This document shows positions 1 through 64,000 of a DNA stretch of 64,000 nucleotides, piece by piece; positions within the stretch are counted from its first letter, which is position 1; each line of letters starts with the position of its first letter. Below the pieces are notes generated by a model. That model did not search any database, was not told the DNA's origin, and saw only the letters and a program-made list of their open reading frames with translations. Made by a program: the position numbers and the translations under genes. Origin of the DNA: Psammoneis japonica (lineage: Eukaryota); contig QPGO01000002.1 in the NCBI GenBank assembly GCA_008632985.1, positions 1 to 64,000 on the forward strand, in the 5' to 3' direction.

Positions 1-1106
1 TCTCATCCAGGCAGACTTCTCCCAATTTTGGAGACCACAAAGACTGGCTAACCTGATGATGTGTCGTTGTGCACACCAACATCAAATCTGTGTGTGCCAG
101 TTTGATGGGAGGCAACAATCGGGAGGCGTGGAGTGCATGACATTGTGTTTGGCATCTGCAGACCAGTTGGTGCATCTTTGGTTGGCACAACTCAAATCAA
201 AAATGTCAGCAAAACCTGATGTCATGGTGTCCTCTGTTTTTTTTTTGACGACCAACACACGAGGGCAGACGGGTCAACAACTGCCAAGACAGACATTTCT
301 GTGTTGCATGATGTCTGCACTGTGCTCAAAGAACAAGCACAAACGAAAGTAGAGTCAAGCATGAAAAGCAAAAATTATGAGATTAAATTTTGCTCTGTGA
401 TTTTTGGTTTCTCTGAACAAGTTCTCAATGGCCCAAAGCTTCTGCGCTGTTTCCACAGACAAAAGGCCCTTGGGAGAATGTGTTTGTGACAACAGATTGT
501 CCCAATGACGTGCTCCAGTCCCAGGTGATGCACAAAACAACAACTGATTTTAAACATAAATTGTGCACCCTTTGGTGCAATTGTTCCATCTGCAAACGGG
601 CAAGCAACTCACACCGCACAGTGTTTTCCACTGTCCCTGTTTTCAACTTGTTGTTTGTCTGGTGTTTCTCATCCAGGCAGACTTCTCCTGATTTTGGAGA
701 CCACAAAGACTGGCCAACTTGATGATGTGTCTTTGCGCATGCCAACATTAAATCTTTGTGTGTCAGTTTGACGGAGGCAACAATTGGCAGGAAATGCATT
801 GGGAGGCATGGAGTGCAAGATCTTGTGTTTGGCATCTGCAAACCAGTTGGTGCATCTTTGGCTGGCACAACTCAAATCAAAAACTTCAGCAAAACCTGAT
901 TGCATGGTGTCCTCTGTCTTTTTCCACAACCAACACACAAGGGCAGAAGGAAACCGACATCCAAAAAATCAACTGATTGGCCAAACAATCCCTCTCTGGG
1001 GTGTTGGTGATGCAGGTCCTGACGTCTGCCACCACTTGCATCATTTGTTGAGATGCAGCATCCAGCGCTGGCAGAATGACACCTTCTTGCAGGCGCTTGA
1101 TCTTGT

Positions 1107-1758
1107 GATGCGTTCCAGGTCTGGGTGGGACCTCGCACTGCTGAACTGTGACATCGACAGTTTTTTGAATCACGTCGCATGTCGTGCACGTAGATTTCTG
1201 CGTGATTTTTCGATGTTTTGTGTCATTTTACGGTGCACTTGTTGAGCGATCCGTCCAACAACTTTTGACATGTTTTGTTCCAGCGCAATTCTACAATGTC
1301 TTGAGAATCGTGCAGGGCAGGCACCTTTGCAAAAACGTTGAGTGGCAAGAGGCACAATTGCACCACAAACTTGGCCGTTTGTTTGATGTTGAAGATGAGC
1401 GTGTGGCCTGTTCCAGCTCCAGGTGCTCTGCGCGGGTTCGATTCCCATCATTTGGAAATTTGTGCATTCAGCGCAATTGACTTTTTCCAAATCCGTTTTT
1501 TGCCAAACTGAAGGGCAAGTGCACACTTTACATGCATTTTCGGGTGCACACTCACCTTTCGATTTTCGAAACGATCAAAACCGAAGGAGTCAATTGCGCC
1601 AAACTGCACAGAAAATCGGCCTCTCGCGTGATGAAAAGCAGATCACCTGGAGCTGGAACAGGCCATGTGCATCAATTAAATCTCGCACTGCAGAGCTTGC
1701 ACGCAGAATTCTGCGGGCCCAATGTCACACGGAGTCCCACCTGGGGCTGGAACGCGTC
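1107..1758 (+). mobile_element. Non-autonomous TIR element, family A (4-bp TSD)
   Basis: Termini GATGCGTTCCAGGTCTGGGTGGGAC ... GTCCCACCTGGGGCTGGAACGCGTC; TSD TTGT at 1103-1106 and 1759-1762. Confidence 0.9.
1405..1664. mobile_element. Small MITE nested in family A, related TIR
   Basis: Perfect 21-bp TIR GGCCTGTTCCAGCTCCAGGTG; flanks GTGT/ATGT (4-bp TSD, one transition); absent from other A copies. Confidence 0.9.
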
Positions 1759-2116
1759 TTGTGCTCAAGTTCTCCAAGGGCTGGACAGTGATTGGCCCCT
1801 TTGTTGCCCAGAGCAATGATGAATTTGTTGCCAAATTCACCATGTTTGCATTCCGACAAGTCTCCTGCCACTGACGGAGTGAAGGCCTCATGCAGTGCCC
1901 AAGTTCCGTCAACAACATTCTTTGCTGTGATGCTGAAAGCTGCGTCAAAGTCATCGGAGAAAACGTCTGTCCTGGCAACAAACAAGGGCAATCTGCAATG
2001 GCCATCCTGGCATTGCAGGTTGCCCCAAATCTTGATGGCATTGACAACCACTTTCCTTTTTTGTCCGGCTTTGATGCATGGGTGACAAGTGTGTCCCCAT
2101 CCACAAACAAATCAGG

Positions 2117-3380
2117 GGCGGGTTCCAGCCCCAGGTGATGCACAAAACAACAGTCAATTTTGAGTGCAACTTGTGTGTTTTTTAGTGCATGCGGCATTTT
2201 CCCACAAAATGCTTGGATGGATTGACTTTCATGGGCCACCGGAGCATGAACATTTGAACAATTTTTGAGGGGCAGTCAAGTCCTCATGGATGTGTTCCAG
2301 CTCCAGGTGGGACCTTGCACTGCTGAGCTGTGACATCAACAGTTTTTTGGATCGCGTCGCATGTCGCGCACGTGCATTTCAACGTGCAACATTCTACAAA
2401 ATTGTTTCATGCTCCCTGTTTTGCAAAGCCAAGGGCTCTCCATTTTCAACATTTGTGAAAATGAAAATGGGCTGGGTGTGTTTTTTGATGTCTGAAGAAC
2501 ACACCCGGGCAAACCATCAATGATGCACTCCAAGTGTGAAGGAGGAGACACATTCGCAAAATTGCCCATTTTTCTGTTGGTGATCATTCACATTCTCATT
2601 GCAGCACAAATTTGCTGCGGAGCTCACACACAGAATTGTGCGGGCCCAATGTCACAATTCTTGGCCATCATGGTGGCATTTGTTCATTTCTGTGTGCGAC
2701 ATTCTACAAAATTGTTTCATGCTCCCTGTTTTGCAAAGCCAAAGGCTTTCTGTTTTCAACATTTGTGAAAATGAAAATGGGCTGGGTGTGTTCTTTAATG
2801 TCTGAAGAACACACCCGGGAAACCATCAATGATGCACTCCAAGTGTGAAGGAGGAGACACATTCACAAAATTGCCCATTTTGCTGTTGGTGATCTTTCAC
2901 ATTCTCATTGCAGCACAAATTTGCTGCAGAGCTTGCACGCAGAATTGTGCGGGCCCAATGTCACGTGGAGTCCCACCTGGGACTGAAACCCATCCATGGG
3001 ACATGCATCATGAACTTCCTTGGCAGACTCAATGCTGATTGTGCGTCATCACATTTTACACTGATGTTTTTTTAGGCAGAAAGCCTGCCAAGTGGCATCA
3101 CAGAAAGATGTGTTTGGGTGACATCCAAACAACGGCAATGTTTTTGCCAAAAATCATCCGTTGTGTCACAAGTCTTTCAGTGCAATGAAAAACACAGATG
3201 GCACAATGACAATGATGTTGCAACACTCACACGAGTCTTGTCAGTGTTGGAAAACATTTGTGTTTGTGTGGAATCTACACTTTTGGTGGTGAAAGTTGGA
3301 TCGTGAGTTGTGGGCCACGCAAAAATTGTGCAAATGTTGTTTTTGTGCATGATTTGGTTCAAGCGCGGCTGGAACACATC
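2117..3380 (+). mobile_element. Non-autonomous TIR element, family B, carrying an A' insertion
   Basis: Left GGCGGGTTCCAGCCCCAGGTGATG, right GCGGCTGGAACACATC; TSD CAGG/TGGG; an uninterrupted B copy lies at 27675-28229. Confidence 0.85.
2289..2994 (+). mobile_element. Family A' TIR element (A termini, different interior), internally duplicated
   Basis: A-type TIRs, TSD CATG (2285-2288, 2995-2998); 2385-2655 repeats at 2687-2965, separated by ~30 bp matching the copia LTR 3' end. Confidence 0.85.
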
Positions 3381-4372
3381 TGGGAGCTGAGGCGACATTC
3401 TCGACCCTGCTGCTGACAGCAAAAAAATGCTTTGCACAATGAATCAAGGAGCAATGGGAGTGCTTGTGGAAACCTTGACCAATTGTTTTGACATTGGGCT
3501 GTGGGGCCATTTGGTTTGGAGACTTTGCTCCATTTGTGCAGCAGGCTTTTAGGGTGGATGCCTTCTTTGGCTGATTTTCTAAAACAACTTTGAAGGACGT
3601 GATGCTGCCTTGAATGAAGCAAGGGAAATGTGAGTTGAAAGAAACAAGGGAAAAGTGAGTTGATCATGTTTTTGCTTGCTGACTGCACTCATCACAAATG
3701 CCAAAAAAGGAGGGAAAATCTGATGTCAATTTTCTGACTTGATGATTGATGAAGAATCTGACACCACGGCATGGTGACATGCAACGTCAATGCGCATGAA
3801 GTGTGCGGGTTTTTCAAATCACCATTGTGCTCCAAATGGTTGCAAGCATTGACAGTTCAAAAACAAACATTGAAAAAATTGGAGAATGGACATCAACAGA
3901 ATTCAAAAGTCAATCGACAACTGCCAAGACAGACATTTCTGCGTTGCATGATGTCAACCGTGAAAACAATGAAAATGAGCAATCGGCTGATGAAGAGCTT
4001 TTACAAAATGGGTTTCCTCACCCACGTTGGACACCTTGCTGTTGCTCCCACAAGAAGAAACAACACAAGTCTGTCAACAGCCACAGCTGTGTTGAGGGAT
4101 GCCAACAAGAACTTCCGGCATGACAACACAAGGCGTGAAGAGATCCAGTGGAGAAAAAGAGAATCAAAGTGCAACATTGCAGTTTGACCACAACGACATC
4201 TAAAGCCACTTGGCATTGAAGGATCACATCACTCATCTGATCAAGAAACACCTGGGGGCAAACTCGACCAAGGTTGCTGCCCAGACACACAGGGACTCCA
4301 TCAAGAAGAAACACAACTTCTTCATGAAGTGCGTGAAGAAGGGTGCCACAGACAACACAAAGGCAGCATTGT

Positions 4373-5262
4373 NNNNNNNNNNNNNNNNNNNNNNNNNNNN
4401 NNNNNNNNNNNNNNNNNNNNNNNNNNNNNNNNNNNNNNNNNNNNNNNNNNNNNNNNNNNNNNNNNNNNNNNNNNNNNNNNNNNNNNNNNNNNNNNNNNNN
4501 NNNNNNNNNNNNNNNNNNNNNNNNNNNNNNNNNNNNNNNNNNNNNNNNNNNNNNNNNNNNNNNNNNNNNNNNNNNNNNNNNNNNNNNNNNNNNNNNNNNN
4601 NNNNNNNNNNNNNNNNNNNNNNNNNNNNNNNNNNNNNNNNNNNNNNNNNNNNNNNNNNNNNNNNNNNNNNNNNNNNNNNNNNNNNNNNNNNNNNNNNNNN
4701 NNNNNNNNNNNNNNNNNNNNNNNNNNNNNNNNNNNNNNNNNNNNNNNNNNNNNNNNNNNNNNNNNNNNNNNNNNNNNNNNNNNNNNNNNNNNNNNNNNNN
4801 NNNNNNNNNNNNNNNNNNNNNNNNNNNNNNNNNNNNNNNNNNNNNNNNNNNNNNNNNNNNNNNNNNNNNNNNNNNNNNNNNNNNNNNNNNNNNNNNNNNN
4901 NNNNNNNNNNNNNNNNNNNNNNNNNNNNNNNNNNNNNNNNNNNNNNNNNNNNNNNNNNNNNNNNNNNNNNNNNNNNNNNNNNNNNNNNNNNNNNNNNNNN
5001 NNNNNNNNNNNNNNNNNNNNNNNNNNNNNNNNNNNNNNNNNNNNNNNNNNNNNNNNNNNNNNNNNNNNNNNNNNNNNNNNNNNNNNNNNNNNNNNNNNNN
5101 NNNNNNNNNNNNNNNNNNNNNNNNNNNNNNNNNNNNNNNNNNNNNNNNNNNNNNNNNNNNNNNNNNNNNNNNNNNNNNNNNNNNNNNNNNNNNNNNNNNN
5201 NNNNNNNNNNNNNNNNNNNNNNNNNNNNNNNNNNNNNNNNNNNNNNNNNNNNNNNNNNNNNN
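4373..5262. other. Assembly gap (890 N)
   Basis: Run of N. Confidence 1.
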
Positions 5263-6190
5263 ACAATGACCTGCCATGCCAGGGTTTGCTTCAAGATGCT
5301 GAAAGTGCCAACAAGCTGATGGAGCAGCAAAAGAGCATTGTGCTCTCAAACAGGCAGCCAAGAATGAAAGGACAACGTTGATGAATGCTGAGCAGGAAAA
5401 CAGACAAGTGGAGTTGGAGGAAGAATTGACGACTGTGGAGGAAACAGAAAAAGACATTTGTTTGGAAGAAGACAAGGAGTGCATGTCACTGGACACTTGC
5501 TCAGCAAAGAAGAGCTTGAGCAACCTCATCAAGCATGCCCTGTTGAGCCAGACTGCAGTGGCTGCTCCTGGTGCATTGCCATCAAGAAATGATTCAACCA
5601 GTGCATCATGGAAGGCACAATCCCAGGACTTGCAAGACAGAGAAAGGAGAAGGAAAGAAGGAAGAAAACAAACAACAGGAAAAGGGAGGTGTTGGCAAAC
5701 AAGAAAAGAGCCCAAAAAACAAGCAGAAGAAATCGAAGGTGACGACATCAGCCAAGCCTGGAAAGAGCAAGAAGGCCAATGACAAATGGCTGGAAGAGTG
5801 CAGTGCAGATGATGCAGCTGGGGTTGCCGAGAATGCACCAAGCAAGGAAGAAACACTGCCAGAGGATCAGTGCATTGTCGACAATTTGATGAGTCACAAG
5901 AAGTGCAACAAGACATGACACGTCCTTTGGTTGACCAGAGAAAAGTCATGGGAGCCGGAGGAAAACATTGACAAGGAATTGGTGAAAGCTCGTTGGAAAA
6001 GGGTGGAAGACAAAAAGGCAAAGATGGTTTTGTTGGATGAAATGGAGGAGTTGGAATGCTGTCTGTGCGGGTGACGGGCAAGCAATGGAGTGTCTTGCAA
6101 CAAATGTGGTCGAATTTCCCACAGGACATGATCATCCAGGATGGGTGATGATCAGCTCCTGTGCTTTGGTTGTTGCAGACACACAGAACA
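5263..6190 (+). pseudogene. Decayed gene: charged linker, chromodomain-like region and PHD-like Cys/His finger (paralog 24780-25680)
   Basis: IVDNLMSHKK..HVLWLTREKSWEPEENID (chromodomain W-E-P-E-E-N motif), then CCLCG..CNKCGRISH.TC..LLCFGC; frameshifts and stops. Confidence 0.6.
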
Positions 6191-6884
6191 GCAGAACCTG
6201 AAAAGCAGTGCAACATGCAAGGAACATGATCACACCCCACTGTTGCAGCTCTCTTTGTGTGAGACGTTGTGGGAGCCTTTTGTTTTGAACTGCAGTGAAA
6301 GACTGAATGGGGCAAAAATGACCAGAGACAGGGTCATTTGTGCAATGAAAAAAAAAGGGCAGTGCAGAGTGGCACACTGCATTCCTTGTGGTGACAAAAC
6401 CTTGCTGAAAGAGGGACACCAGGGAAAAAGACAGGAGACACAGTCCTGATTTCACATGGCTGCGGCGATGGTTGAATGTTTGTTTGTGCACACAAAAGCA
6501 GCTTGTTTGACAGCGACTGTTGACTGTGTGGTGCCCGGTGCAAAGGAGCAGTTGTTGCAGTGCTTGATCAAAAATGCTGCACAGCAGTTGTTGCTGGATG
6601 GCAAAACAGTGGAGCTGTTTCTCTCTGCTGTCCATGCATGTGAGAAAACACACACATGTGACATTGTGCAACGTCACATTGAGACCCGGGAAATGGGGGT
6701 TCGAGTCTCAGTGGAAAACCCACAGTCACCTGATCAAGCCAGATCAGCTCATTGTGGAGGAAAGAAAACTGATGTCACATTGTGACTTCGCTCTGTTGTG
6801 CAGATGCAATCTGACATTGCAAGATGATGTGTGCATCACATGAACAAAGAATGTTGGGCATTGAATTGTGACATCATGGGGCAA

Positions 6885-8371
6885 CAAAACAAAACCAAAC
6901 TTCCACATTTAAAGTGCTGCTGCGCTTCCACCCTGCAGCCCCGGCAACAAGCTAACCCACACCCCCAGTGCACTAAAGTGCGGCAGGAGCACATGACAAT
7001 CAACCAGAATCGGCGCCACCCACAGGTGACACCGCTCCAAAGCAACTTGCGACAGCTCTTGTTCCACATGCAGCTGAGCGCTTGGCCTCTTTCATGCTTG
7101 ACTTGAACACAGGTTTGACCATGGCTGGCCAGCTTCGAGTGCGATGAGTGGAATGAGCAAGGTGTTCATCCACTGAGTCGAGCAGTTGTGCCCCATCCTT
7201 CATGAGACATTCATCTGATTTTGAATGAACAGCCCGAATCTCTGCTTCAGCATCTCTCCGCTGAGATGACTTCCTGGTCTCTGAGTCGTGACCGTGTGCA
7301 TCATCATTGTGGGAATCCCACAGCTCCCACCATTGCTCCCAAATGCAGTTGCCAACAGTTGCTGCCCAATCCGCACACTTCTCTTCATCCCAAAGATCCT
7401 GACACAATCCGCTGGACAGGAGGCAAGCACGTTGAGTTGCACTCCACTCGCGAGAAAGCCGATGGCCTCCTGGAACGGAATGATGCCACTGCACTCCTGT
7501 GAAGACCGTTGGCATGCATCGTTTCCTCTCGAACCAAGACTCGACAGATGAAAGGATCAAGTCATGGATGGATGGTGATGTGTGAATGTCGTCGCACTTT
7601 TTCCGCAGGCCTTGCAAAAACTTTCTGTGCCAATCTTCGTCATGAGGACATCGCAGGACATGATTGCAGTCTTCCATGGGGTGCTGGCAATGAACGCAAC
7701 AGTCGGGTTGCACCGGATTGTGCCGATGTGCGATCTTGTCAGTGGGAAGCAAGTCCTGGACCAACTTGACCGTGCTCACCTTTCGTTGAATGTCACGTGA
7801 CATCAACTTGGGGTGCACTTTCCAATCGATGGATTCGCAAACCATGTCGGACCACCCAGTGCTTGTGATGAGCGCAGGATTGGATGCCTCGAATCGGAGA
7901 ACGAACTTGAATTTTGATGTCATGGTCGCATTTTGAATGACTGAATTTGCCATGCAATGGGGTGTCCGAGGAGCCGCTGGTGCGTGTCCTGAGTGTTGTC
8001 TGTGGAATCGACCAGCTGGAATGTCCGCCCGCACACTCAATTTGGCTGGCAACGAGAGTGATTTGACCGGGACGTCATCATCTTGGTGCCCTTTGATTCA
8101 ATGGAAATCGACAAAAGATCCGGATGACTCCCCAACAGAACAGCTCAAAATGGCATGAGTTGTCTGGCAGATTTCGTGCAAAAGACCCCACTCTGCTGAC
8201 AAAGTGCTGGCCACGTGATGTCGTTGGTGGCAGTCACAGACACAATTCGATTCATCCAAATCGTCTGGCAAGGGAGGAGCTGCTGCAAATTTGACAATGT
8301 TCCAAGTTGAGGAAGAGTTGTCGCAATGGAGATCGAACCCGAGCAAGAAAATTGATTGGCAATGTTTTTTT
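6885..8371 (-). mobile_element. 3' fragment of non-LTR retrotransposon (RNase H end and zinc knuckle), same family as 38331-47984
   Basis: SAEWGLL..VDFH.IKGHQD..AKLSVRADIPAG and CCVHCQHPMEDCNHVLRCP; aligns to 38331-39845. Confidence 0.85.
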
Positions 8372-9002: not shown

Positions 9003-9595
9003 GATCATCCATCATCCCTCACAAGCCATCCACCATCAATCATCCATCATCCACCATCCATCATCCGCCATCCACCATTCACCAACCATGATCCATCAGC
9101 CGGCCATCCATCACCCATCATCCAAAAATTTTCATCCACCAGCCATCATCCACCATCCATCATCCATCATCCATCATCCGCCACCCGCCACCCGCCATCC
9201 ACCATCCATCATCTGCCATCCATCATCCATCAGCCGCCATTCATCATCCACCACCCATCATCCACCATCCATCAACTTCCATCCATCGTCAATCAACCGC
9301 CATCCATCAACTTCCATCCATCATCCATCATCTGCAATCCATTGTCTGCCATCCGCCATCCATCAACCACCATCCACTGTCCATCATCCACCATCCACCA
9401 CCCATCATCCAGGATCCAGGATGACAGATGGAAGCTGATGGGTGGTGGATGATGCATGGCGGATGATGGACAGTGGATGGTGGATGATTGATGATGGCTG
9501 GTGGATGGTGGCTGGTTGATGATGGATGGTGGATGATGGACAATGGATGATGGCTGGTGGATGGCGGTTGGTGGATGATGGTGGGTGGTGGATGA
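9003..9595. repeat. Heptamer-based array (CCATCCA/CCATCCG)n, then the same repeat inverted
   Basis: CCAT-rich 9003-9410, ATGG-rich ~9418-9595. Confidence 0.95.
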
Positions 9596-9596
9596 T

Positions 9597-12500
9597 GTGC
9601 GCTGTGCTTGAAGAATGAGCACAAACAAAAGCAGAGCCAAGTGTGAAAAGTGAAGATTGTGAGATTTGTTTCTGCTCAATCATTTTGGGTTTCTCCAAAT
9701 GGGTTCTCAATGGCCTGAAGCATTTGCGCTGTTCTCACAGACAAGAGACTTTTCGGAGAATGAGATCATGACAGCAGATTGTCCCGATGTGATTGACATT
9801 GACACACAAGACGTCAACATCATTGCACGATTGTGTTTGCCATTTTCGACATCTGGTCATTTCTGTGTGATTGACATGTCCTTTGTACGAACCCACAATT
9901 GTTGCACGATTGAAGCACAAATGTTTTTAACATCTCCACACATGCACACACAATGTGCGCAACAACGCACGCTGCATTTGCCCCCCCAATTGCACACTAG
10001 AGTCAGTTGTTGAATGGCACAATCCAACCGACATTGACAGCGTCAATGACCTCACTGTGTTTGATCTGCACTGTGCCATTGGTGTGTGCCATTGTCATTG
10101 CATGTGGTCCAACATGGGGCTGCTCTAGTTTCTGTGAGTCTTTCTCAAGCAGTGTCTTTTCTCCTGCTCTGTGCGTGCAAGGAGTGTGTCAAGCACTCTC
10201 TTGAGCATCATTTTCATTTGTGATTTTTGGTTTTCGCTGCTGGATGAATTTCCAGTCTGTGACTTGTTGGACGTTAAATGTCACATCTCTGTTGAAGACC
10301 AATTGTCCAGGTGTGGCTTGCACAGCAGTTTGACATGCAGAACGTGCTGCAAGTGCCGCTGCTGATGACATTTCAGCAAAAGGATCCTCAGCATTCAGAG
10401 GTGCATGTTGCAAATCAAGTGTGCAGATCATGTTTCCCAGCACTTGATGTGTGCATTCAACAACTGCGTTTGCTTGTGGATTTTGTGTGGTTGTGGGCTT
10501 GACTTCAATGCCACAATCATCTTGAGCCATGTCTTTAAATTGGTGTCTGATGAGCTCACTTCCACAGTCACAAGTGATCAACTGTGGCCAAGGACATCTG
10601 CTTGACCATGTCTGTTCTAACAGTCCAGCCACAGTTGTGGATTCCTCACTTGAAATTTCCACAACTTCAAGCCATCCGGTTGCTGGATCAATCATTGTTG
10701 AACACTTCAAGACTGGGGGTTTCTTCTTTCCCTTGCAACGCATCTTGCATGGCACAACAAGGTCCACACACAGTCATTCCCATGGCATGGATTCTGCACA
10801 CTCAGGAGGCAAATGTCCACATTTCTTGTGTTTCTTTTTGAATTTCTGGCACGCCTCACATCTCGACATGAATTTTTGCATGTCTTCACACAAGGTGGAC
10901 CACCGTGAGTGTTGTGAGATTGTTTCTTCTGTTTGATTTGTGCCAGGGTGAAGAAGGTGTGCATGACGCCAATCAATCACTGCCTTTTGCAACCTCTTTG
11001 GAACAACAATTTTATCCTCATGACACATGAGCAACCGGTCTTGCATGAAATGTCTTGTTGGACAATTTGGAGAGAATGTCTTTGCCCCATTTTTGTCCAG
11101 TGTCAAGAACTTCATGGTTTGATGGAAAGACACTGTTGCAGGATTTTGGCAGGACCTTTTCAGCCAACTCTTCTGTGCTGAGGTTTTCCATGGGTTCTGT
11201 TTTTTTTCACAGCAAGTTGGCTAACTGCATCTGCGAACATGTCATTTCAAGACTGCACTCTTCTGTCATCAGACGCCAATGCATGACTCTGTCCATTGTG
11301 AAATTTTTGTGTGCGAGATTTTTGTGGTCCGCGTGTGTGTTCATCTGTTGGCCAAACAGCACATTTCGGAACTCTTTTGATGTCTCCACCATGGACAACA
11401 GCTTTTTTCCCATTGTGGCATGATGCGTCTGCGCTCCACTCAGCTTGCGGCTGTGGGGGGCAATCAGTTGGTTTTTCTGTGTGACAACCGCCCCCAGCTG
11501 AGAATTGCTTGCATCGGCACATGTCTCAGAGGGTGCATTGAAATTCGGATGTGACAACAGCATGTCTTTGGAGATGACGCACTTCATGTTTTCAAATGCT
11601 TTTTGTTCTGTTTTGGTCCACTGCCACTTTGCTTTGGTTGAAGCAAGTTTGGCCAAAGGAGCTAGAACATGAGATTGTCGAGGCCACATGTCTTGATGGC
11701 AAATGATCGTGCCGACAAAGCGCTGCAATTCTTTGCAGGTTTTGCAAGTTTCAGTCACGTGAATCACTTCTGCTTTTTTTGCAATGGGGCTGATGCCATT
11801 GCAGGTGACAAGAAAGCCCAGATGGTCCACTTGGGGTTTAGCGAAAAAAGACTTTTCGGCATTGACCTTCAGCCCAGCTTGTTCAAGGCACAGAATCACC
11901 GTCTCAAGCTTCGTGAGGTGGTCTTGGAAATCACCTTTTGCGAGGCACAGTGCATCGTCAATGCAAGTCCTGACGAACTCAAGACCTGCCATGAGCTCAC
12001 TCACGTGCTCTTGGAAAATGTCTGGAGCTCCACAGATTCTCGCAGGGAGTCTGCAGCAGTCATGTTTGCCCCAAGGCATGACAATCATGCACAAACAACG
12101 TGCGCGCGGCATTGATTTGATGTGACAGCATCCCACAATTAAATCATGGGATGTTGTGTGTGCGAAACCTCCAAGTTTCTGTGGCACATCCTGAACATTT
12201 GGCAGAGGAAACGGCGCACGTGTTGGCCTCTTGTTCAGCTCACAAAAGTTGGATGAAAACCAAACTTGACCATTTTTCTTTGGTTGAACAAAAAATTGGA
12301 GCTGCCCATTCAGAACAATTCAGTTTTCTCAAGACCTTCATTTTGCACAGTCTTTCAACCTCCTTTCAAACAGACGCCTCCAAGTGTCACATCATTGAGG
12401 TCAGCAGTGTGACAATCTGAGTCAAGGCCTGCTGGATTGGCGTGAATCACTTTGGCCCTTTTCCCAGGCTTCCTCATGTCCAGCAATGTGCAAGACTCCT

Positions 12501-28229: not shown

Positions 28230-28237
28230 CCCTCAAG

Positions 28238-29833: not shown

Positions 29834-29834
29834 C

Positions 29835-35381: not shown

Positions 35382-35422
35382 CTTGCCCTGACCCAAAACC
35401 GAGCCAAAAAGACGCACACACT

Positions 35423-48081: not shown

Positions 48082-51000
48082 TGGCAAATGGAGGATGGTG
48101 GATGGTGGACGGCGGATGGTGGATGGCGGATGGCAGATGGTGGATGGCAGATGGCGGATGGTGGATGGTGGATGGCGGATGGTGGATGGCGAATGGTGGA
48201 TGGTGGATGGCAGATGCTGGATGGTGGATGGTGGATGGTGGATGGTGGATGGCGGATGGTGGATGGCAGATGGCGGATGTCAGATGCAAGATGCCAGATG
48301 CCAGATGGCGGATGGTGGATGGTGGATGGCGGATGGCGGGTGCTGAATGGTGGATGGTGAATGGTGGGTGGTGGATGGCAAATGGTGGATGGCGAATGGT
48401 GGATGGCAGATGCTGGATGGTGGATGGTGGATGGCAGGTGCTGGATGGTGGATGGTGGATGGTGGATGGTGGATGCCGGATGGCAGATGGTGAATGGTGG
48501 ATGGCGAATGGCAAATTGTGGATGGCAGATGCTGGATGGTGGACAGTGGACAGCGGACAGCAAATGCTGAATGGTGGATGGTGGATGGTGGACGGAGGAT
48601 GGAGGATGGCAGATGGCGGATGGCGGATGGCGGATGGCGGATGGTGGATGGTGGATGTTGGATGGCGGATGGCGGATGGCGGATGGTGGATGGTGGATGG
48701 TGGATGGCGGATGACAGATGGTGAGTGGTGGATGACGAGTTGTGAATTGTGGATGGCAGATGCTGGATGGCAAATGATGAATGGTGGACGGCAGATGCTG
48801 GATGGTGGATGGTGGATGGTGGATGGCGGATGGCGGATGCTGAGTGGTGGGCGGCAGATGGCGGATGGCGGATGGTGGATGGAGAATGGTGGGTGGCAGA
48901 TGGCAGATGGCGGATGGTGGATGGCGAATGCTGAATGGTGGATGGTGGATGGCGGATGGTGGATGGCGGGTGGCGGACAGCGGATGGTGGATGGAGAATG
49001 GTCGATGCTGGATGGTGGATGGTGGATGGTGGATGGCAAATGCTGAATGGTGGATGGTTTGTGGTGAGTGGCGATTGGTGGATGGTGGATGGTGGATGGC
49101 GGATGGTGGATGGCAGATGGCAGATGGTTGATGGTGGATGGCAAGTGACGAATGGCGGATGGTGGACGTCAGATGCTGGATGGTGAACGGTGGATGACGA
49201 ATGGTGAATGGTTGATGGCAGATGCTGGATGGTGGATGGCGGATGGTGGGTGCTGAATGGTGGATGGTGGATGGCGGATGGCGGATGGCGGATGGCGGAT
49301 GGCGGATGGCGGATGCTGGGTGGTGGATGGCGAATGGTGGATGGCGAGTGGCGAATGATGGATGGCAGATGGTGGATGGTGGATGGTGAGTGGCGAATGG
49401 CAAATGGTGAATGGCGAATGGCAAATGGCGGATGGTGGAAGGCAGGTGCTGGATGGTGAACGGTTGATGACAAATGCCGAATGGTGGATGGCAGATGCTG
49501 GATGGTGGGTGTCGGATGGCGGGTGCTGAATGGTGGATGGTGGATGGTGGATGGTGGATGGTGGATGGCGGGTGGCGGATGGTGGATGGTGGATGGCGGA
49601 TGGCAGATGGCGGATGGCGGATGGCAGATGGCGGATGGCAGATGGCGAATGGCGAATGGCGGATGGTGGATGGCAGATGCTGGATGGTGAACGGTGGATG
49701 ACGAATGGTGAATGGTTGATGGCAGATGCTGGATGGTGGATGGTGGATGGTGGATGCTGAATGGTGGATGGCGGATGGCGGATGGCGGATGGCGGATGCT
49801 GAATGGTGGGTGGCGAATGGTGGATGGCGAATGGCGAATGATGGGTGGCAGATGGTGGATGGTGGATGGTGGATGGTGAGTGGCGAATGGCAAATGGTGA
49901 ATGGCGAATGGCAAACGGCGGATGGTGGAAGGCAGATGCTGGATGGTGAACGGTTGACGACAAATGCCGAATGGTGGGTGGCAGATGCTGGATGGTGGAT
50001 GTCGGATGGCGGGTGCTGAATGGTGGATGGTGGATGGTGGATGGCGGATGGCGGGTGGCGGATGGTGAACGGTGAACGGTGGATGGTGGATGGTGGATGG
50101 TGGATGGTGGATGGTGGATGGTGGATGGCGGATGGCAGATGGCGGATGGCAGATGGCGAATGGCGAATGGCGAATGGCGGATGGTGGATGGCAGATGCTG
50201 GATGGTGAACGGTGGATGACGAATGGTGAATGGTTGATGGCAGATGCTGGATGGTGGATGGCGGATGGTGGATGCTGAATGGTGGATGGTGGATGGCGGA
50301 TGGCGGATGGCGGATGGTGGATGGCGGATGGCGGATGGCGGATGGCGGATGGCGGATGGTGAATGGTGGATGGTGATGGTGGATGGCGAATGGTGGATGG
50401 CGAATGGTGGATGGCGAATGGTGGATGGCGAATGGTGGATGGCGAATGGTGGATGGCGAATGGCGAATGATGGATGGCAGATGGTGGATGGTGGATGGTG
50501 GATGGTGAGTGGCGAATGGCAAATGGTGAATGGCGAGTGGCAAATGGCAGATGGTGGAAGGCAGATGCTGGATGGTGAGCGGTTGATGACAAATGCCGAA
50601 TGGTGGATGGCAGATGCTGGATGGTGGATGTCGGATGGCGGGTGCTGAGTGGTGGATGGTGGATGGTGGATGGCGGATGGCGGATGGTGGATGGCGGATG
50701 GCGGATGGCGGATGGCGGATGGCGGATGGTGAATGGTGGATGGTGAATGGTGGATGGCGAATGGTGGATGGCGAATGGTGGATGGCGAATGGTGGATGGC
50801 GAATGGTGGATGGCGAATGGTGGATGGCGAATGGTGGATGGCGAATGGTGGATGGCGAATGGTGGATGGCGAATGGTGGATGGCGAATGGCGAATGATGG
50901 ATGGCAGATGGTGGATGGTGGATGGTGGATGGTGAGTGGCGAATGGCAAATGGTGAATGGCGAGTGGCAAATGGCGGATGGTGGAAGGCAGATGCTGGAT

Positions 51001-51287
51001 GGTGAGCGGTTGATGACAAATGCCGAATGGTGGATGGCAGATGCTGGATGGTGGATGTCGGATGGCGGGTGCTGAGTGGTGGATGGTGGATGGTGGATGG
51101 CGGATGGCGGGTGGCGGATGGTGAACGGTGGATGGCGGATGGCGGATGGCGGATGGCGGATGGCGGGTGGCAGATGGCGAATGGCGAATGGCAGATGGTG
51201 GATGGCAGATGCTGGATGGTGAATGGTGGATGGCAAATGGTGAATGGCGGATGGCAGATGATGGATGCTGGATGCCAGATGGTGGAT
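48082..51287 (+). repeat. 3.2-kb (GGATGGY/GAATGGY)n array with higher-order repeats
   Basis: Marker GGAAGGCAGATGCTGG..GACAAATGCCGAATGG recurs at ~49437, 49927, 50556 and 50982 (also ~36281). Confidence 0.95.
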
Positions 51288-52208
51288 TTAAATGGTTTTT
51301 TGTGGGGCACTCAAATCCTCATGGGCCGCGTTCCAGGTCTGGGTGGGACCTCGTGCTGCTGAACTGTGACATCCACAGTTTTTTGAATCTCGTCGCATGT
51401 CGCGCGCGCAGATTTCTGCGCGATTTTTTCGACATCATGTGTCATTTTACGGCACACTCATTGAGCGATCCGTCCAACAACTTTTGACATTTTTTGTTGC
51501 AGCACGATTCTACAATGCACTGAGAATTGCGTGGGGCAGGCGAGTTTGCAAAAACACCAAGTGGCAAGAGGCGCAATTGCACCACAAACTTGGCCGTTCA
51601 TTTGACATTGAAGATGAACACATCCACCGGTTAAATTCTCGCACCATGGAGCTCGCACGTGGAATTCGGCGGGCCCAATGTTGCGCGGAGTCCCACCCGG
51701 GGCTGGAACGTCAGTGGATTTGTGCTGAGATTTTTTCGCAGGTGGAAACCCTGCCAAGTGACATCGCAGAAAGACGTGTTTGGGCAACACCCAAATGACG
51801 GCAATGTTTTTGCCGAAAATCATCCATTGTGTTGCGAGTCTTTTGGCACAATGAAGGGCACAGACAGCACAACAACAACGACACTGCAACACTCACACGA
51901 GTCTTGTCAGCGTTGCAAAACATTTTCACTTGCACAAATCCACACTTTTGGCGGTGAAAGTTCGATCGCAAGTTGGGGGCCGCGCAAAAATCGCGCAAAT
52001 GCCATTTTTGTGCACGACTTGGTTCACGTGCGGCTGGAACACGTCTTTTGTTTGCCCTGCAGGACAATTTTTTGGGAGTGTTTTCTGGCTCTGCGGCTTG
52101 AAGCAACACGCAAAACAGCACGGACAATGGCGTTTCACCAAATTGAAAAGTGCGGTTGTCTCTGAGGTCAGAATCTGGACACTCTCAATGGAGTTTGGTG
52201 CGTCACAT

Positions 52209-52272
52209 CATTTTCGCATTTTCGCATTTTCGCATTTTCGCATTTTCGCATTTTCGCATTTTTGCATTTTTG
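52209..52272 (+). repeat. (CATTTTCG)n octamer microsatellite, ~8 units
   Basis: Direct inspection; about one unit at paralogous ~57231. Confidence 0.9.
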
Positions 52273-52310
52273 CGCGGTCTTTAAATCGAGAACAATCTCG
52301 CCACATGTTG

Positions 52311-52860
52311 CAGGGGGGCACTGAAGGGACACAGCCCACTGGCAGGGCGCTGATCAAGCAAGATTTGTGGCGCAAGTGTTTGGCACTGGGGGCACCTTTG
52401 AGATTTTGTGGCCTCAGCCATGCCCCGCAATTCTTGGTTTTGTGCCCTTGACCTTTTTGTGCCCTTGGCTGTTTTGTGCCCTTTCCTTTTTTGTGCCCTT
52501 GAGCACTTTGCCCCATCTCGTGGTTTTGTGCCCTTGGCCATTTTGCGCCCTTTGTGACTTTGTGTCCTTGGCCATTTTGTGCCTTTTTTGGCTTTGGGCC
52601 CTCAGCCGCATTTGGCGCCCCTCAAGGTTTTGTGCCTTCAGCGGTTTTTGTCCATTGTGGCTTTGTGCCCTTTGCCACCTTGGGCCCTTTCTGATTTTTT
52701 GCCCTTGGCAGCTTTGTGCCCTCAGCCACCATTTTGCACCCTCAGTCATTTTGCGACCTCAGCAACTTTGTGCCCCTGCCTGGTTTGTGCTCTTTGTGAT
52801 TTCTCGCCCTCAACAGACATTTTTTGTCCTTTTTGATTTTGTGCCCTTGGCCATTTTGCT
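52311..52860 (+). repeat. Cluster of degenerate TTTGTGCCCT motifs, probable transposon subterminal repeats (copy 57277-57825)
   Basis: Many short direct motifs following CAGGGGGGCAC; no partner end found. Confidence 0.55.
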
Positions 52861-54533
52861 GGTCACGACAGAGCTGCAGAACAACAAGAACCTGCCTGAT
52901 GAAGAGCGCGGGGCAAAGGAGACAAAGTGCGCGAGACGCCTGGAGCACTTCATGGCAGGGAACTCCAAGAACGGAGATGCGGAAGGGAGCACACCCAGGA
53001 AACGCAAGAGGGAGGATTTTTGCAGGAAGATTGTGGCAGAGCGTGGCAGGAAAGTGGGGGAGGGGGGCAGTGGGTTGGGGGACGAGGAAAGCCACGTCGG
53101 GGGTTGGACCCAGACACATGAGCTGGAGCCAACACCTGTTTGGCAGACAATGTGTGAAAAGTGGCAGTCACCTTTGTTGCAAATGATGTTGCAGGCACAA
53201 CCCCAATTGAGTGACTGCACTCCACATTGCCAGCCGGAGAGCAGCAGGGGATGGGCGCGACACAAGTGGCACTTTGGGAAGCCAGTCAACTGATCTGTTG
53301 TCAGCCAGTTGTCGAATGTGTTTGAGTGGGTGCGCCGGAGTTTTTGGCCTGCTCACTTTCTATGTGGCCTGGTGCAACCCAAATCTGTGTGGACTCAGCA
53401 CGCTTTGCCCTGCAGAGCAGTTTTTGGGAGTGTTCTCTGGCTCGCGGCTCAATGCCAAGTTGAAAAATGCGATTGTCTCTGAGGTTGGAACCTGGATGCT
53501 CTCAACAGAGTTCGGTTCGTTGCGTCATCTTGTGCGAGATGAGCTCGAGAGTGCCCAGGTTCACATGGGCAGATTGTGGTGAAAATTCTTGCTGCAGGTT
53601 CACATTGACAACGTCGCTTCTGTTGCTCCACGACCAACCTCTTGCACTGCCATTCATGCTGTGTGTTTTGTCGAGGCTTCATGTGTTTGCAGCAGGTTCA
53701 ACTTGCGTGCAATTTCTCTTTCTGCGCTGCTCTTTTGTTCTGTGGGTCTCTGTTGTCATGAGGCACCCCAGAGACACTTTTTCTTGTCAAGAATGTCATC
53801 TCTAAAGTGCGGTGGCCATGGCAATTCAATGACAAAGCCAAGTCACAGACACAGCATCAGGAAGAGTTCAAGACAAACACGGCGACTTGGAGCCATGACA
53901 TCTTGAGCTGGGTGAGCTCTCGAGAGCTCAGACACATCATCGTGCAGTTTTGACAACATTTCTCCCCCACTGTCCATGGCGATGCTGAGTTTGATTTGGC
54001 AGACCAGTGCATCATGGTGGCTCCAAAGGCAAAGATTGCTTCTTTTGGCTGTGGGGCAGTTTGCAACCTGGGAACATGTGGCTTGTTTGCACAAAAATGC
54101 GCGAGATGCCTGGAGCACTTCATGACAGGGAACTCCAAGAACGGAGATGCGGAAGGGAGTGCACCCAGGAAATGCAAGAGGGAGGATTTTTGCAGGAAGA
54201 TTGTGGCAGAGCGTGACAGGAAAGTGGAGGAGGGGGGCAGTGGGTTGGGGGATGAGGAAAGCCGCGTGGCGGGTTGCGCCGAGACGCACGAGCTGGAGCC
54301 AAAACCTGCTTGGCGGACAATGTGTGAAAAGTGGCAGCCACGTTTGTTGCAAATGACGTTGCAGACACAATCTAAATTGAGCAACTGCATTCCACAGTGC
54401 CAGCTGGAGAGCAGCTGGGGAAGGGCACAACACAAGCGGTGCTTTGGGAAACCAGTCAACCGATCTGTTGTCAGTCAGTTGTTGAACGTGTTTGAGTGGG
54501 TCCGCCGGAGTTTTTGGCCCGTTAACTTTCCAC

Positions 54534-62233: not shown

Positions 62234-62252
62234 ATGGACCCTGCCACTGGAA

Positions 62253-63080
62253 CCCAGTTTGGTTTCACCATGCAATTTTTCAAAATTCCCCGGGATTGCC
62301 ACCTTTTACCCTGTTTTTCCGCGGGAAGGGTGAATTCCCGGGGAATCGCCACGAATTTCCATTCGTCACATGTGTGCTTGACACATGAACAAAAAACAAT
62401 GCATTGGCAATTCCCCGTGCTTCCCTTCTCGCACATTTCTACGTGTTCTGCATGCCGGCATGTGCAGAACCACACACCAGATGCGCAACAATCAACCATC
62501 GACCAACGACCACAGCCAAAAATGGGCAACACGCCATGGAGCGTTCGCGCCCTGTTTGTGACGGCTCTTGTCAAACAAAAATGATGCCAGTCAATCCAGT
62601 GAGTGAGATTATGATCAACAGTGCAAAGTGAAACTGAGCAGACGTGTGACAGATGATGTTGAGCAGAAAACCAGTGCATTGATCGTTGCACTTGTTTTTC
62701 TTTCCTGTGGTCACAAATGTGAGCCATGCGGCGTTCATGGCAAAGTTAAAGGCAAAAGCAGAACCGCACATGGCTGACAAAAATGTGGCGGATTGAACGG
62801 TCATGGTTTTTGTTTCAATTGACACATCTCATGTGCAGAATGAAGCGGGTCGTTTGGAATCACTCCGTTGTTGTGCAGCCACAAATGCAAACCATGAGGC
62901 GTGTGGAGAGAAGGCTGAGGCAAAAGCAGAGCCTCACAAGGTCAATGAAAATGTGGCGGATTGACTGGCAATGTTTGTTCTTCCCTTTGACCTGTCTCAT
63001 GCACAGAATGCAGTGCATCATTTTTTCCTTCTTGTGTCGTGTGGTCACATGTGCAAACCACAACGGCTCTGGAGCAAAGT
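62253..63080 (-). mobile_element. Inverted copy of the 8-bp-TSD element, interrupted by a gypsy LTR
   Basis: Reverse complement of ~54895-55706; begins CCCAGTTTGGTTT. Confidence 0.88.
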
Positions 63081-64000
63081 GCCCCATGCATGTGCCAGGC
63101 GCTGAAAAAGAAGATGTGTTGCGACTTTGTCGTTGTGAAAAATGTGAGTTAGTTTAGAGCAGAAAAAGTGGGATCGTGCGAATGGGGAATCTTGCCAAAT
63201 CCCCATTCGCTCGCATTTGGATCGCATCAAATCGATCGTGCGTTTGCATTGTGGATCATGCGAATCAAGCCATCACGCGCCATGCACGAGTGATGTCATC
63301 GTGTGGAATCACACTGCCATCGTGGGCCAGATGACGGGCCAGTGTGCTTCACACGGATGCTCTCTTGGCATCCTTCTGGAATTGCCTGAGACCCAGAGCC
63401 ACGCCCTCCTGTGGTCGTGCTTCCCAGGTGCGTGTTAACAACACTGCGTTGCCACGCACAAGAGGCTTGTGCACGGTCTCGCCGTGTTGTCCAGCAGCGA
63501 GGCATGCTGCACACTCCCCCATGATCAGGGCCGTTAAGTGACAGGATGTCTTGCTGGTGACAGGGTGCAATCTGCCGCAGATTGCATGCATCTGTCAGCG
63601 CTCCGTTCTGGATGCGCAACGTGCCGTTGTCACATGCACGGACAACTCTGGCGGGTCCTGCACAGCTGTCAGAACCGCATTTAGAGGATTGTTCCTGTTT
63701 GATGAGTGCCAATTGCCCTGCCGCACATTGACACTCCTTGCGTTTCTGATTTTCACACTTGTTGTTCAGGTGGATGAGCTTCTGCTTTCTGGTTTCTATG
63801 TGCTTCCACTTGGCACGATGGGCAACAGACAAAACCGCATCGCATCCGAAGACCAATTGCATGGGACTTGCACGCGTGGTCATGTGCACCGCAGCTCTAA
63901 CAGCGAAGGCCACTGTGGAGAGGATGCCACTCCATGGGTCATCTTTGTCTGGTTCCATGTCCTGTGCTGAAAAGGAACGCACCATGTTGCCAAGTGTCTG
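63080..64000 (-). mobile_element. Second Ty3/gypsy family: integrase C-terminus, PPT, 3' LTR (~63080-63511)
   Basis: DPWSGILSTVAFAVR..SPMQLVFG..DNGTLRIQ..NLRQIAP; PPT GGGGGAG at ~63514-63520 (minus). Confidence 0.88.

Follow-up and report, generated by a model that had tools for sequence, protein, structure and literature searches.

Apart from fungal RIP and the APOBEC/ADAR editing of animals, mutational genome defences are, to our knowledge, hardly known. RIP, whose features include RID/DNMT-type enzymes and premeiotic pairing, turns CpA into TpA and so makes TA; APOBEC3 and ADAR act on the cDNA or RNA of one strand, leave strand-coordinated tracts and affect retroelements only. The sole enzyme family we know to deaminate adenine in polynucleotides is ADAT2/TadA, and we know of no enzyme that is restricted to TpA on DNA, and of no adenine deaminase that works on chromatin DNA in both its strands. 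The available text of PMC10354150 describes an amphioxus ADAT2 that turns A:T into G:C in the DNA of E. coli; this enzyme, the single DNA-acting ADAT2 characterised, prefers the context GAA, and the ABEs have a broad adenine context. The original statement that TadA-derived editors favour TA thus finds no support there, and known deaminases leave the specificity for TpA unexplained. The T that 5hmU replaces in dinoflagellates is preferentially that of TA and TC; most of the loci fall in repeats, and they silence transposons (PMC11572971, available text).

TpA-directed A:T>G:C hypermutation itself had one prior report, so the original belief that no such system had been described is outdated. 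The available parts of a 2026 bioRxiv preprint (10.64898/2026.01.13.699255) report exactly this signature, TpA-only A:T>G:C hypermutation, in integrated NCLDV and virophage DNA of the chlorarachniophyte Bigelowiella natans, a marine alga. In mutation-accumulation lines, two viral inserts gained 231 de novo mutations, of which 230 were A>G or T>C, without exception at TpA; RT, endonuclease-RT and DDE domains were over-represented among the TpA-depleted coding sequences.

The DNA analysed here is a stretch of 64,000 nucleotides, hereafter the window, with the following features (strand given where one applies):

1..64000: continuous block of repeats, depleted in TpA and enriched in TpG/CpA, in which no host gene, tRNA or Rfam RNA is recognisable
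2655..6886, + strand: segmental duplicate of 23009-26366, 92-96% alike (sequence match)
4373..5262: assembly gap of 890 N (base counts)
9026..9588: 7-bp satellite of the CCATCCA/TGGATGG type (this and the other satellites by Tandem Repeats Finder)
10192..12319, - strand: Ty3/gypsy pol fragment with 0 Tyr (Pfam and Tyr columns)
10192-10773, - strand: gypsy integrase core (Pfam rve, 7.9e-9)
10777-11220, - strand: gypsy integrase zinc domain (Integrase_H2C2, 7.1e-12)
11210-12319, - strand: gypsy RT/RNase H (RT_RNaseH_2, 2.1e-18)
13161..14432: 7-bp satellite, C-rich strand up, 182 copies
20186..21466, + strand: copia-type pol fragment, integrase region (homologues and Tyr columns)
28237..28570: 7-bp satellite
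30520..33869, + strand: two long ORFs of unrecognised origin, one of 592 aa (0 Tyr) and one of 504 aa (2 Tyr)
35422..36913: 7-bp satellite, G-rich strand up, 213 copies
37413..38534, - strand: second RNase H fragment of the same gypsy family (RT_RNaseH_2, 2.1e-19), 0 Tyr in 374 aa
40708..41537: TIR DNA transposon of about 826 bp, nested in a dispersed repeat of about 380 bp
42822..45463, - strand: non-LTR (LINE-type) element, with an endonuclease remnant and a 744-aa ORF (42822-45053)
48088..51287: 7-bp satellite, G-rich strand up, 457 copies
51286..54092, + strand: duplicate of 56258-59056, about 91% alike (sequence match)

Pfam was run on 153 of the 174 ORFs of at least 120 aa, the 21 inside satellites being left out, and found retroelement domains only, with no deaminase among the ORFs scanned; Rfam and tRNA scans of the window gave no hits. 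The two gypsy fragments match at 89% (11049-11703 and 37654-38332). Two homologues of the copia-type fragment carry PF07727 (RVT_2); one is named as a diatom reverse transcriptase, from Fragilaria crotonensis. The LINE-type ORF has 2,216 homologues, the longest of about 2,000 aa; Exo_endo_phos is present in all four that were tested, with a weak RVT_1 in one and zf-RVT in another, and it is weakly matched by the endonuclease remnant of the window (44882-45463, E 0.0016). All relatives of the window's transposons that bear organism names are pennate-diatom proteins. Pfam had no hit for the 592-aa or the 504-aa ORF, and for the former neither a PDB sequence match nor a homologue was found. The TIR element has inverted arms of 37 nt (40711-40747 and 41498-41534, 92% complementary), is flanked on both sides by TTA, which is intact and is the one target-site duplication read for the original claim that such duplications are hit too, and holds 9 TA against 58 expected; five contigs join 40706 to 41532 and so represent its empty site.

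Dinucleotide counts give 234 TA in the window against about 3,900 expected, an observed/expected ratio (o/e) of 0.06, or 0.064 once the satellites and the N gap are set aside (55,765 bases). Each of the 64 bins of 1 kb holds 0 to 12 TA, and the 3 kb of satellite at 48001-51000 hold none. TG (7,135, o/e 1.71) and CA (6,155, o/e 1.72) are abundant, as had been noted together with the rarity of TpA; CG is low (2,226, o/e 0.58), TC stands at 1.00, and AA (1.22), TT (1.25) and likewise AT show no depletion. By arithmetic on these counts, the excess of TG and CA (about 5,500) roughly equals the deficit of TA (about 3,700) plus that of CG (about 1,600). The satellites are asymmetric, with 29 TG and 214 CA in the bin 13001-14000 of the C-rich array and 216 TG and 25 CA in the bin 36001-37000 of a G-rich one. 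Outside them TG and CA number 5,924 and 5,594, and their order along the window is random (runs z 0.09, the five control pairs all lying between -5 and -36). This equal frequency and random interleaving imply that each site and strand was hit independently, leaving no single-strand tracts. The loss of TpA is about 94% complete, is confined to TpA and has produced TpG or CpA in about equal numbers. The surviving TA vary with the 3' neighbour: ATAT is absent (237 expected), as are ATAC/GTAT (439 expected), and TTAA occurs 50 times (237 expected).

The same loss is written in the proteins. Across the gypsy, copia-type and LINE-type proteins, 31 columns are conserved as Tyr in homologues, of which 19 read Cys, 7 His and a single one Tyr; the replacement of conserved Tyr by Cys or His that had been claimed for three retroelement classes is thereby borne out in 26 of 31 columns. 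The gypsy RT ORF has 0 Tyr in 370 aa, its YxDD box reads CIDD, and its 11 columns, defined by Tyr in at least 70% of 40 homologues, have become 5 Cys, 5 His and 1 Phe. The 9 columns of the copia-type ORF, built on 10 of 16 hits, read 7 Cys, 1 His and 1 Phe, and the 11 of the LINE-type ORF, from 30 homologues picked for long coverage among the 150 matches listed, read 7 Cys, 1 His, 2 Phe and 1 Tyr. Proteins that lack Tyr altogether and have CIDD as their catalytic box have decayed rather than adapted. There is also an effect on annotation: Pfam found neither the copia-type pol fragment nor the LINE-type RT.

CpG decay is a second, separate process on the same DNA, which also feeds TG and CA and to which we attribute the Cys, Gln, His and Trp read at Arg columns of the gypsy protein. 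Because its substrate is CpG, it could not have eliminated Tyr codons and does not explain the loss of TA. Both processes bear on the comparison of repeat copies, in which 57 intra-window pairs (22,272 columns) differ by 1,780 transitions and 416 transversions. CG-vs-TG/CA differences between copies number 610, and CA against TG at the same dinucleotide is the largest class of double differences (299, the next having 40). Where at least three copies align, {CA,CG,TG} is found in 27 columns and {CA,TA,TG} in 10, with 70 ambiguous, and a simple two-copy model accounts for just 124 of 312 CA/TG discordances. Copies of one family were hit independently after insertion. The pair 2655..6886 and 23009-26366 has just 4-7 CA/TG discordances per 1.4-1.6 kb, which dates its duplication after the loss of TA.

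A gypsy family unrelated to those of the window, with 61 copies in contigs of microbial-mat metagenomes, provides a second source. In the RT region, TA o/e ranges from 0.01 to 0.90 among these copies, and conversion, polarised against two TA-rich natural copies, is graded from none to 41 of 45 TpA sites; in this last copy (L063), 30 of 689 other sites changed. The totals are 594 TA>TG and 568 TA>CA (1,162 together) against 82 for all other changes of TA. A>G outside TpA (348/15,420) is no higher than G>A (314/10,990), which, with the excess of AA and TT in the window, upholds the idea of a TpA-specific process over context-independent AT>GC drift. T[A]Y is edited at 0.27 and T[A]R at 0.10, a 3' G being least favourable (0.093), and the base 5' of the T has no effect. 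Choice between TG and CA is again random (pooled runs z -0.55). One locus (L047) has a core with TA o/e of about 0.2 between flanks at about 0.56. Across copies, TpA conversion is uncorrelated with CpG decay (Spearman -0.07) and rises with background divergence (Spearman 0.66), so that a slow context-specific decay may be at work instead of bursts. This series catches the process at all stages and yields a polarised spectrum that constrains the enzyme. A pol-eta-type mutagenesis at WA, one of the candidates originally put forward, was rejected: it predicts loss of ApA too, but AA is in excess, the 5' base is without effect and only TpA is lost.

We conclude, with a probability of about three in four, that the chromosomal DNA of this repeat island underwent TpA-specific A:T>G:C hypermutation, each TpA becoming TpG or CpA. 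The island comprises the gypsy, copia-type and LINE-type retroelements, the TIR transposon, dispersed short repeats and the 7-bp satellites, and the target would be repeated, foreign or silenced DNA rather than the whole genome, as suggested by the B. natans preprint, by the spread among copies of the metagenome family and by the core that is bounded within L047. A genome-wide TpA avoidance or mutation bias, of which the window would be merely typical, is improbable, even if the 64 kb are evenly depleted and have no host gene for contrast. Depletion is local in the metagenome family and, in the available text of the preprint, in B. natans, and the Tyr-less proteins with their CIDD box speak of decay. 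Furthermore, Logan contigs (rather than raw reads) from the only sample that contains the stretch, which may be the assembly's own source, include TA-bearing sister copies: 26 of the 40 best-supported differences listed between window and contigs (1,769 further ones follow) oppose TG/CA in the window to TA in the contig, as do 25 of the 31 listed at 40747-41057 in the TIR element. In ten loose-end contig stretches, a very small sample of 272 dinucleotides, TA occurs 12 times where 19.5 would be expected. The same contigs speak to a sequencing, base-calling, chemical-conversion or assembly artefact. Its plausibility comes from the single sample, from the 30% of sampled words that are absent from that run and from several listed places inside the TIR element where none of the contigs has the window's letter, so the check that had been proposed against reads leaves parts of that element unconfirmed. 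It does support TA-free parts elsewhere: 624 of 4,852 aligned contig pieces are at least 99% alike to the window, TA-free stretches included, and a 321-base contig differs by one letter from 40094-40414, an interval with 0 TA against 15 expected. Had a modified base been misread, molecules would show TG throughout or CA throughout instead of random interleaving; the same signature occurs in independent metagenome assemblies, and de novo events were measured in the B. natans lines according to the available text, all of which makes an artefact very improbable.

ADAR-like A-to-I editing of transposon transcripts, fixed via reverse transcription, would suit a window dominated by retroelements. 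ADAR favours a 3' G, however, and here a 3' pyrimidine is preferred and G is the least edited; DNA elements were hit as well as retroelements, neither strand bias nor tracts are seen in the window or the metagenome family, and copies diverged after insertion. The random choice of TG or CA and the inclusion of the TIR element and satellites place the process on DNA, not RNA, as originally claimed for chromosomal DNA and as the affected intra-window duplicates also indicate. Although ADARs prefer a 5' U (a point also made in the available text of 10.64898/2026.01.13.699255), we hold RNA editing to be extremely improbable. More serious, if still unlikely, is a primary lesion on thymine within the same targeted process on DNA. 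The TpA thymines of silenced repeats would undergo TET/JBP-type oxidation to 5hmU or 5fU; oxidised thymine mispairs with G, giving T>C in parallel with 5mCpG decay. TpA being palindromic, T>C before an A and A>G after a T lead to identical products, the two being one change on opposite strands that cannot be told apart; the original claim of an A>G mutator at TpA on both strands stands for its specificity and its equal products, and the primary event may be A>G or T>C. A thymine lesion would also fit the random strand choice per site, which resembles that of CpG decay, and the presence of CpG decay on the same DNA, which is thus probably modified chromatin, as well as the dinoflagellate preference for T in TA/TC, mostly in transposon-silencing repeats (PMC11572971, available text). 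Against it, TpC is undepleted, unlike in that preference, and TpA conversion is independent of CpG decay across copies.

Under the reading that we favour, hypermutation of chromosomal TpA, adenine in DNA would be deaminated to hypoxanthine, preferentially within T-A-pyrimidine, and taken for G when the DNA next replicates; for this chemical step we see even odds. More tentatively, and with slightly less than an even chance, a dedicated 'reverse-RIP' may exist in several protist lineages (the window's host, an unrelated microbial-mat eukaryote and B. natans). A candidate enzyme, recruited to integrated viruses, satellites and transposons, would convert the adenine of T-A-Y or the thymine paired with it, in either strand of the chromosomal duplex, and leave hardly any TpA behind. 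If this is true, A:T>G:C editing of double-stranded DNA in a specific context would have a natural enzyme. The T-A-Y preference, the random strand choice and the conversion of TpA far above that of other sites in L063 constrain the enzyme to be sought, and TA o/e together with Tyr-less RT proteins may serve to screen for further hosts.

Several known processes resemble this one in part. Like fungal RIP, it makes irreversible, dinucleotide-specific transitions in repeated DNA, at the DNA level, and leaves a dinucleotide signature, but in the opposite direction: RIP itself was rejected because it should bring a gain of TpA and a loss of CpA/TpG, whereas the window loses TA (0.06), gains CA and TG (1.7) and rises in GC. 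With 5mCpG decay it shares a palindromic dinucleotide, the products TpG and CpA and the random choice of strand. APOBEC3/ADAR editing is also a deaminase-driven hypermutation of mobile elements that becomes fixed in genomes; in the window, unlike there, tracts are absent and the changes extend to DNA transposons and satellites. The dinoflagellate 5hmU of PMC11572971 is similarly TpA-biased, concentrated on repeats and linked to silencing, but the available text presents it as a mark and not as a mutation process, and TpC keeps its frequency in the window. The closest likeness is with B. natans, where, in the available text of 10.64898/2026.01.13.699255, there is likewise only A>G/T>C, only at TpA, towards TpG and CpA, where the process is local to foreign DNA, as it would be in the host of the window, and where TpA-depleted coding sequences have a mean TpA frequency of 0.0018, of the same order as the 0.0037 of the window. 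The abstract, Results and Discussion of that preprint report neither a T-A-Y preference nor a random choice of strand. The named transposon relatives of the window being diatom proteins, its host probably belongs to another lineage than B. natans. The two cases are complementary: the available text on B. natans gives de novo rates and a single-copy viral insert that is half depleted (Rho 0.45), whereas the window, near saturation over at least 64 kb of transposons and satellites, displays the end state on ordinary repeats, with TA almost gone, Tyr codons erased, TAA/TAG stops removed and GC raised.

The window is almost free of TpA: 234 such dinucleotides stand where about 3,900 are predicted from base composition (observed/expected, o/e, 0.06), and TpG and CpA are in large excess (o/e 1.71 and 1.72). 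Neither ApA (o/e 1.22) nor TpT (o/e 1.25) is depleted, which excludes a general loss of A:T pairs, and TpC shows no depletion either. The deficit is uniform (range over the 64 one-kb bins, 0-12 TA), and TA o/e is 0.064 once the satellites and an 890-N gap are removed. The CpG o/e is 0.58. By arithmetic on the window counts, the missing TA (about 3,700) and the missing CG (about 1,600) together match the TG+CA surplus (about 5,500), so that TG and CA form a sink fed from two sides.

Pfam was run on 153 ORFs of at least 120 aa, out of 174 found (the 21 inside satellites were excluded), and matched retroelement domains only. No host gene was detected among these ORFs, and Rfam and tRNA scans of the whole window gave no match. 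The features are the following.

2655-6886 and 23009-26366: segmental duplication of about 4 kb, copies 92-96% alike, spanning the assembly gap 4373-5262
9026-9588, 13161-14432, 28237-28570, 35422-36913 and 48088-51287: 7-bp satellite arrays of the TGGATGG/CCATCCA type with A/G variants
10192-12319, minus strand: Ty3/gypsy pol fragment (Pfam)
20186-21466, plus strand: copia-type ORF (homologues with a copia-type RVT_2 domain)
30520-32295 and 32358-33869, plus strand: two adjacent long ORFs of 592 and 504 aa, no Pfam match
37413-38534, minus strand: second RNase H fragment (Pfam)
40708-41537: element with terminal inverted repeats (TIR), about 826 bp, 37-nt inverted arms, TTA on both flanks
42822-45053, minus strand: LINE-type element, 744-aa ORF adjoining the endonuclease (domains of homologues)
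44882-45463, minus strand: weak endonuclease match (Pfam)

The LINE-type assignment follows from the homologues of the 744-aa ORF (2,216, the longest of about 2,000 aa): all four long ones tested carry an endonuclease domain, joined in one by a weak RVT_1 match and in another by a zf-RVT match. Pfam missed the reverse transcriptase of this element and the copia-type pol fragment. Three relatives of the window transposon proteins carry an organism name, all from pennate diatoms at 31-35% identity (Fragilaria crotonensis twice, Epithemia clementina once), and Bacillariophyta is the taxon that the protein atlas gives most often for the copia-type ORF. These three proteins (P0089, P0093, and P0244) are homologues of the LINE-type and copia-type proteins and have a normal Tyr content. 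A dispersed repeat of about 380 bp is interrupted by the TIR element (nested insertion, 40516-41728) and has six more copies, near 1107, 16452, 26794, 51327, 56299, and 61466; five read contigs run across the empty site of the element with the repeat uninterrupted. The satellites, all of one type, occupy about 7 kb, and three arrays adjoin copies of the gypsy-family 3' region. The arrays are nearly pure TG or pure CA per strand (e.g., 216 TG against 25 CA per kb), and were thus either amplified after TA loss or never contained TA. The assembly gap may result from collapse of the two duplicate copies. With TAA and TAG lost, long open frames occur in all six reading frames. Even with TGA as the only remaining stop, the 592- and 504-aa ORFs are too long for chance; the former had no homologue in a search at near lengths, and a PDB sequence search (E <=1) returned nothing for it or for the copia-type and LINE-type ORFs. 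DNA stripped of TpA in this way will mislead gene finders and repeat annotators.

At positions where homologues conserve tyrosine, the retroelement proteins mostly read Cys or His. The gypsy reverse transcriptase ORF (11210-12319, minus strand; 370 aa) lacks Tyr altogether and has CIDD for the YxDD box; at the 11 columns with Tyr in at least 70% of 40 homologues it shows 5 Cys, 5 His, and 1 Phe. The copia-type ORF has 7 Cys, 1 His, and 1 Phe at 9 Tyr-conserved columns (10 of 16 homologue matches used), and the LINE-type ORF 7 Cys, 1 His, 2 Phe, and 1 Tyr at 11 (30 long-coverage homologues out of the 150 listed). Pooled over the three classes, this gives Cys or His at 26/31 columns and Tyr at 1/31. 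The original prediction had described just this signature, i.e., very rare TpA, abundant TG and CA, and conserved Tyr replaced by Cys or His in three retroelement classes, and it holds on all these points. The excess of Cys over His (19 against 7) was given no weight, being absent from six Tyr-depleted metagenome proteins (25 Cys, 29 His). At 10 of the 18 columns where the gypsy alignment conserves Arg, the window has Cys, Gln, His, or Trp. Such a pattern is classically left by CpG decay, which is active in the same repeat DNA alongside TpA loss.

The order of the products along the sequence tells at which level the change occurs. Outside satellites, TG and CA alternate as in coin tossing (5,760 runs for 5,755 expected, z 0.09); five control pairs of complementary dinucleotides are all clustered (z -5 to -36). 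The absence of TG or CA tracts does not fit a deaminase moving along a single strand, be it RNA, cDNA, or exposed single-stranded DNA, nor a misread modified base. Repeat copies within the window (57 non-redundant pairs, 22,272 columns) differ by 1,780 transitions and 416 transversions, and by far the most frequent double difference is a dinucleotide that reads CA in one copy and TG in the other (299, against 40 for the class that follows), as left by one ancestral dinucleotide resolved oppositely in two copies after their separation. Some of these discordances derive from CpG, since columns with at least three copies include {CA,CG,TG} 27 times, {CA,TA,TG} 10 times, and {CA,TG} alone 70 times. 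Copies differ by CG against TG or CA 610 times and by TA against TG or CA 140 times, the latter being few because TA is nearly exhausted and no longer visible as a difference. Together with the CpG o/e and the Arg columns, the 610 CG differences imply cytosine methylation of the window repeats. A model of homogeneous two-copy decay, which predicts 87 CpG-derived and 37 TpA-derived discordances for 312 seen, was rejected as too simple because copy ages differ. Short dispersed repeats have as many as 19-21 CA/TG discordances in 388 bases and were thus struck independently; the long duplicates (2655-6886 and 23009-26366) have only 4-7 per 1.4-1.6 kb, which indicates that they were copied after TA loss. 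The change is specific to TpA, affects either strand independently, follows insertion, acts on DNA, and has come near to saturation.

The assembled sequence agrees with Logan contigs (not raw reads) of a public run of one sample, its kind guessed as DNA, which contains 70% of sampled words from 37001-47000 and is perhaps the assembly's own source and hence not independent; two further runs of the sample contain next to none of these words. Among the runs listed for the stretch, none was of RNA. Aligned contig pieces at least 99% alike to the window number 624 of 4,852. A 321-base contig has one difference from 40094-40414, where the window has 0 TA for 15 expected, and a 590-base contig one difference from 45846-46435, with 2 TA for 35 expected. 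Sister copies number in the thousands in these contigs, and 26 of the 40 best-supported differences listed (1,769 more were found) set TG or CA in the window against TA in the contig. For the TIR element, a 497-base contig from one of the further runs differs from the window at 51 places; 25 of the 31 differences listed over its range are of the TA type, and the window there has 5 TA for 33 expected. TA-bearing, little-mutated copies of the DNA transposon therefore coexist with the stripped one. At several places in this element the window's letter is in no contig of the first run; contigs, unlike raw reads, lose rare variants.

A second family shows the process at intermediate stages. Six of the 40 gypsy reverse transcriptase homologues, all metagenomic, show Cys or His in place of Tyr at the majority of 14 conserved columns, with a pattern that differs from protein to protein; two of the six (P0020 and P0033) are intermediates with 5 and 4 Tyr left. 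Metagenome contigs yielded 80 loci of this family (L001-L080). A 112-base match at 73% is the only DNA similarity between the window and these loci, which, judged by sequence, are different elements and probably belong to different hosts. Whole-locus TA o/e ranges from 0.03 to 0.86, dropping as TG+CA o/e and G+C climb. The copies are about 80% alike in protein, and RT-region TA o/e spans 0.01-0.90 within one microbial-mat metagenome series (e.g., L063, L007, and L055 against L004 and L035). For each of 61 copies, the two TA-rich natural copies closest to it served as reference in place of a consensus. In locus L063, 41 of the 45 shared TpA are converted (23 to TG, 18 to CA), as against changes at only 30 of 689 other sites and decay at 7 of 24 CpG. 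When all rows are summed, among them those of near-identical copies, TA became TG 594 times, CA 568 times, and something else 82 times, and was kept 2,132 times. Outside TpA, A>G (348/15,420) and T>C (287/10,670) are no commoner than the reverse changes (G>A 314/10,990, C>T 299/11,005). Read as adenine editing, conversion depends on the 3' neighbour (0.268 for T[A]C, 0.263 for T[A]T, 0.106 for T[A]A, 0.093 for T[A]G), with no effect of the base 5' of T and random strand choice (pooled runs z -0.55). The window's surviving TAs repeat the rule: ATAT is found 0 times for 237 expected and ATAC/GTAT 0 for 439, against 50 for 237 for TTAA and 56 for 439 for CTAA/TTAG. Depletion is bounded in locus L047, where TA o/e is about 0.2 over a core of some 6.5 kb and about 0.56 in the flanks on either side, which also have more CpG; a search for LTRs in this locus found no direct repeat of at least 60 bases by which the core edges could be matched to element ends. 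Conversion correlates with background divergence (Spearman 0.66) and not with CpG decay (-0.07), a rise compatible with bursts as well as with steady decay. The 80 loci constitute a ready-made graded series for the TpA mutation process.

These observations fit a process that would convert TpA in repeat or foreign DNA, on either strand independently, until near saturation. We infer that it is aimed at such DNA from the TA-bearing sister copies, from the metagenome family, where depletion varies between copies and shows a bounded core, and from a preprint on Bigelowiella natans discussed below. Chemically, adenine would be deaminated to hypoxanthine in a T-A-Y context, and the product fits. This context is reminiscent of U-A in tRNA anticodon loops. 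The original prediction had proposed a TadA-type enzyme and stated that TadA-derived editors favour TA; the available part of the relevant study describes a broad adenine context for base editors and GAA in DNA for amphioxus ADAT2 (PMC10354150), which does not support that detail. Its other candidate, mutagenesis at WA by a pol-eta-type polymerase, is rejected because ApA is not lost.

The main rival to adenine deamination is oxidation of thymine at TpA. According to the available text of a study on dinoflagellates, 5hmU there favours TA and TC and also repeats (PMC11572971); TpC, however, is undepleted in the window. RNA editing followed by retrotransposition is rejected, since a DNA transposon and satellites are affected, tracts are absent, copies diverged after insertion, and G is the least favoured 3' neighbour; the expectation of an action on chromosomal DNA rather than on RNA intermediates is thereby upheld. 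A sequencing or assembly artefact is unlikely, given that the two products are interleaved, read contigs match the window, independent metagenome assemblies bear a like signature, and de novo events were measured in B. natans according to the available text of the preprint.

What did not survive is the claim of novelty. The accessible text of the preprint (bioRxiv 10.64898/2026.01.13.699255, dated 2026-04-14) gives direct rate measurements: in mutation-accumulation lines of B. natans, 231 of 302 nuclear point mutations fell in one integrated giant-virus region and one virophage region, and 230 of these 231, all of them located at TpA, were A>G or T>C, with a rate of about 6e-7 per site per generation; only some lines showed this. 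Mean TpA frequency is 0.0018 in a subset of 324 predicted CDS, among which reverse transcriptase, endonuclease-RT, and DDE domains are over-represented; that text mentions no 64-kb cluster, and its authors propose an ADAT2-like adenine deaminase. Our literature search, in which subscription journals were thinly covered, found no second report of TpA>TpG/CpA hypermutation, and none for diatoms. The TpA-directed A:T>G:C change of repeat DNA thus stands, without its novelty and the two candidate details, and the window is a further case of a kind described once. It extends this precedent to saturation as the end state of transposons and satellites, and the metagenome family, of unrelated source, provides a second example, which is graded; also added are the T-A-Y preference, the random choice of strand, and the coexistence with CpG decay.
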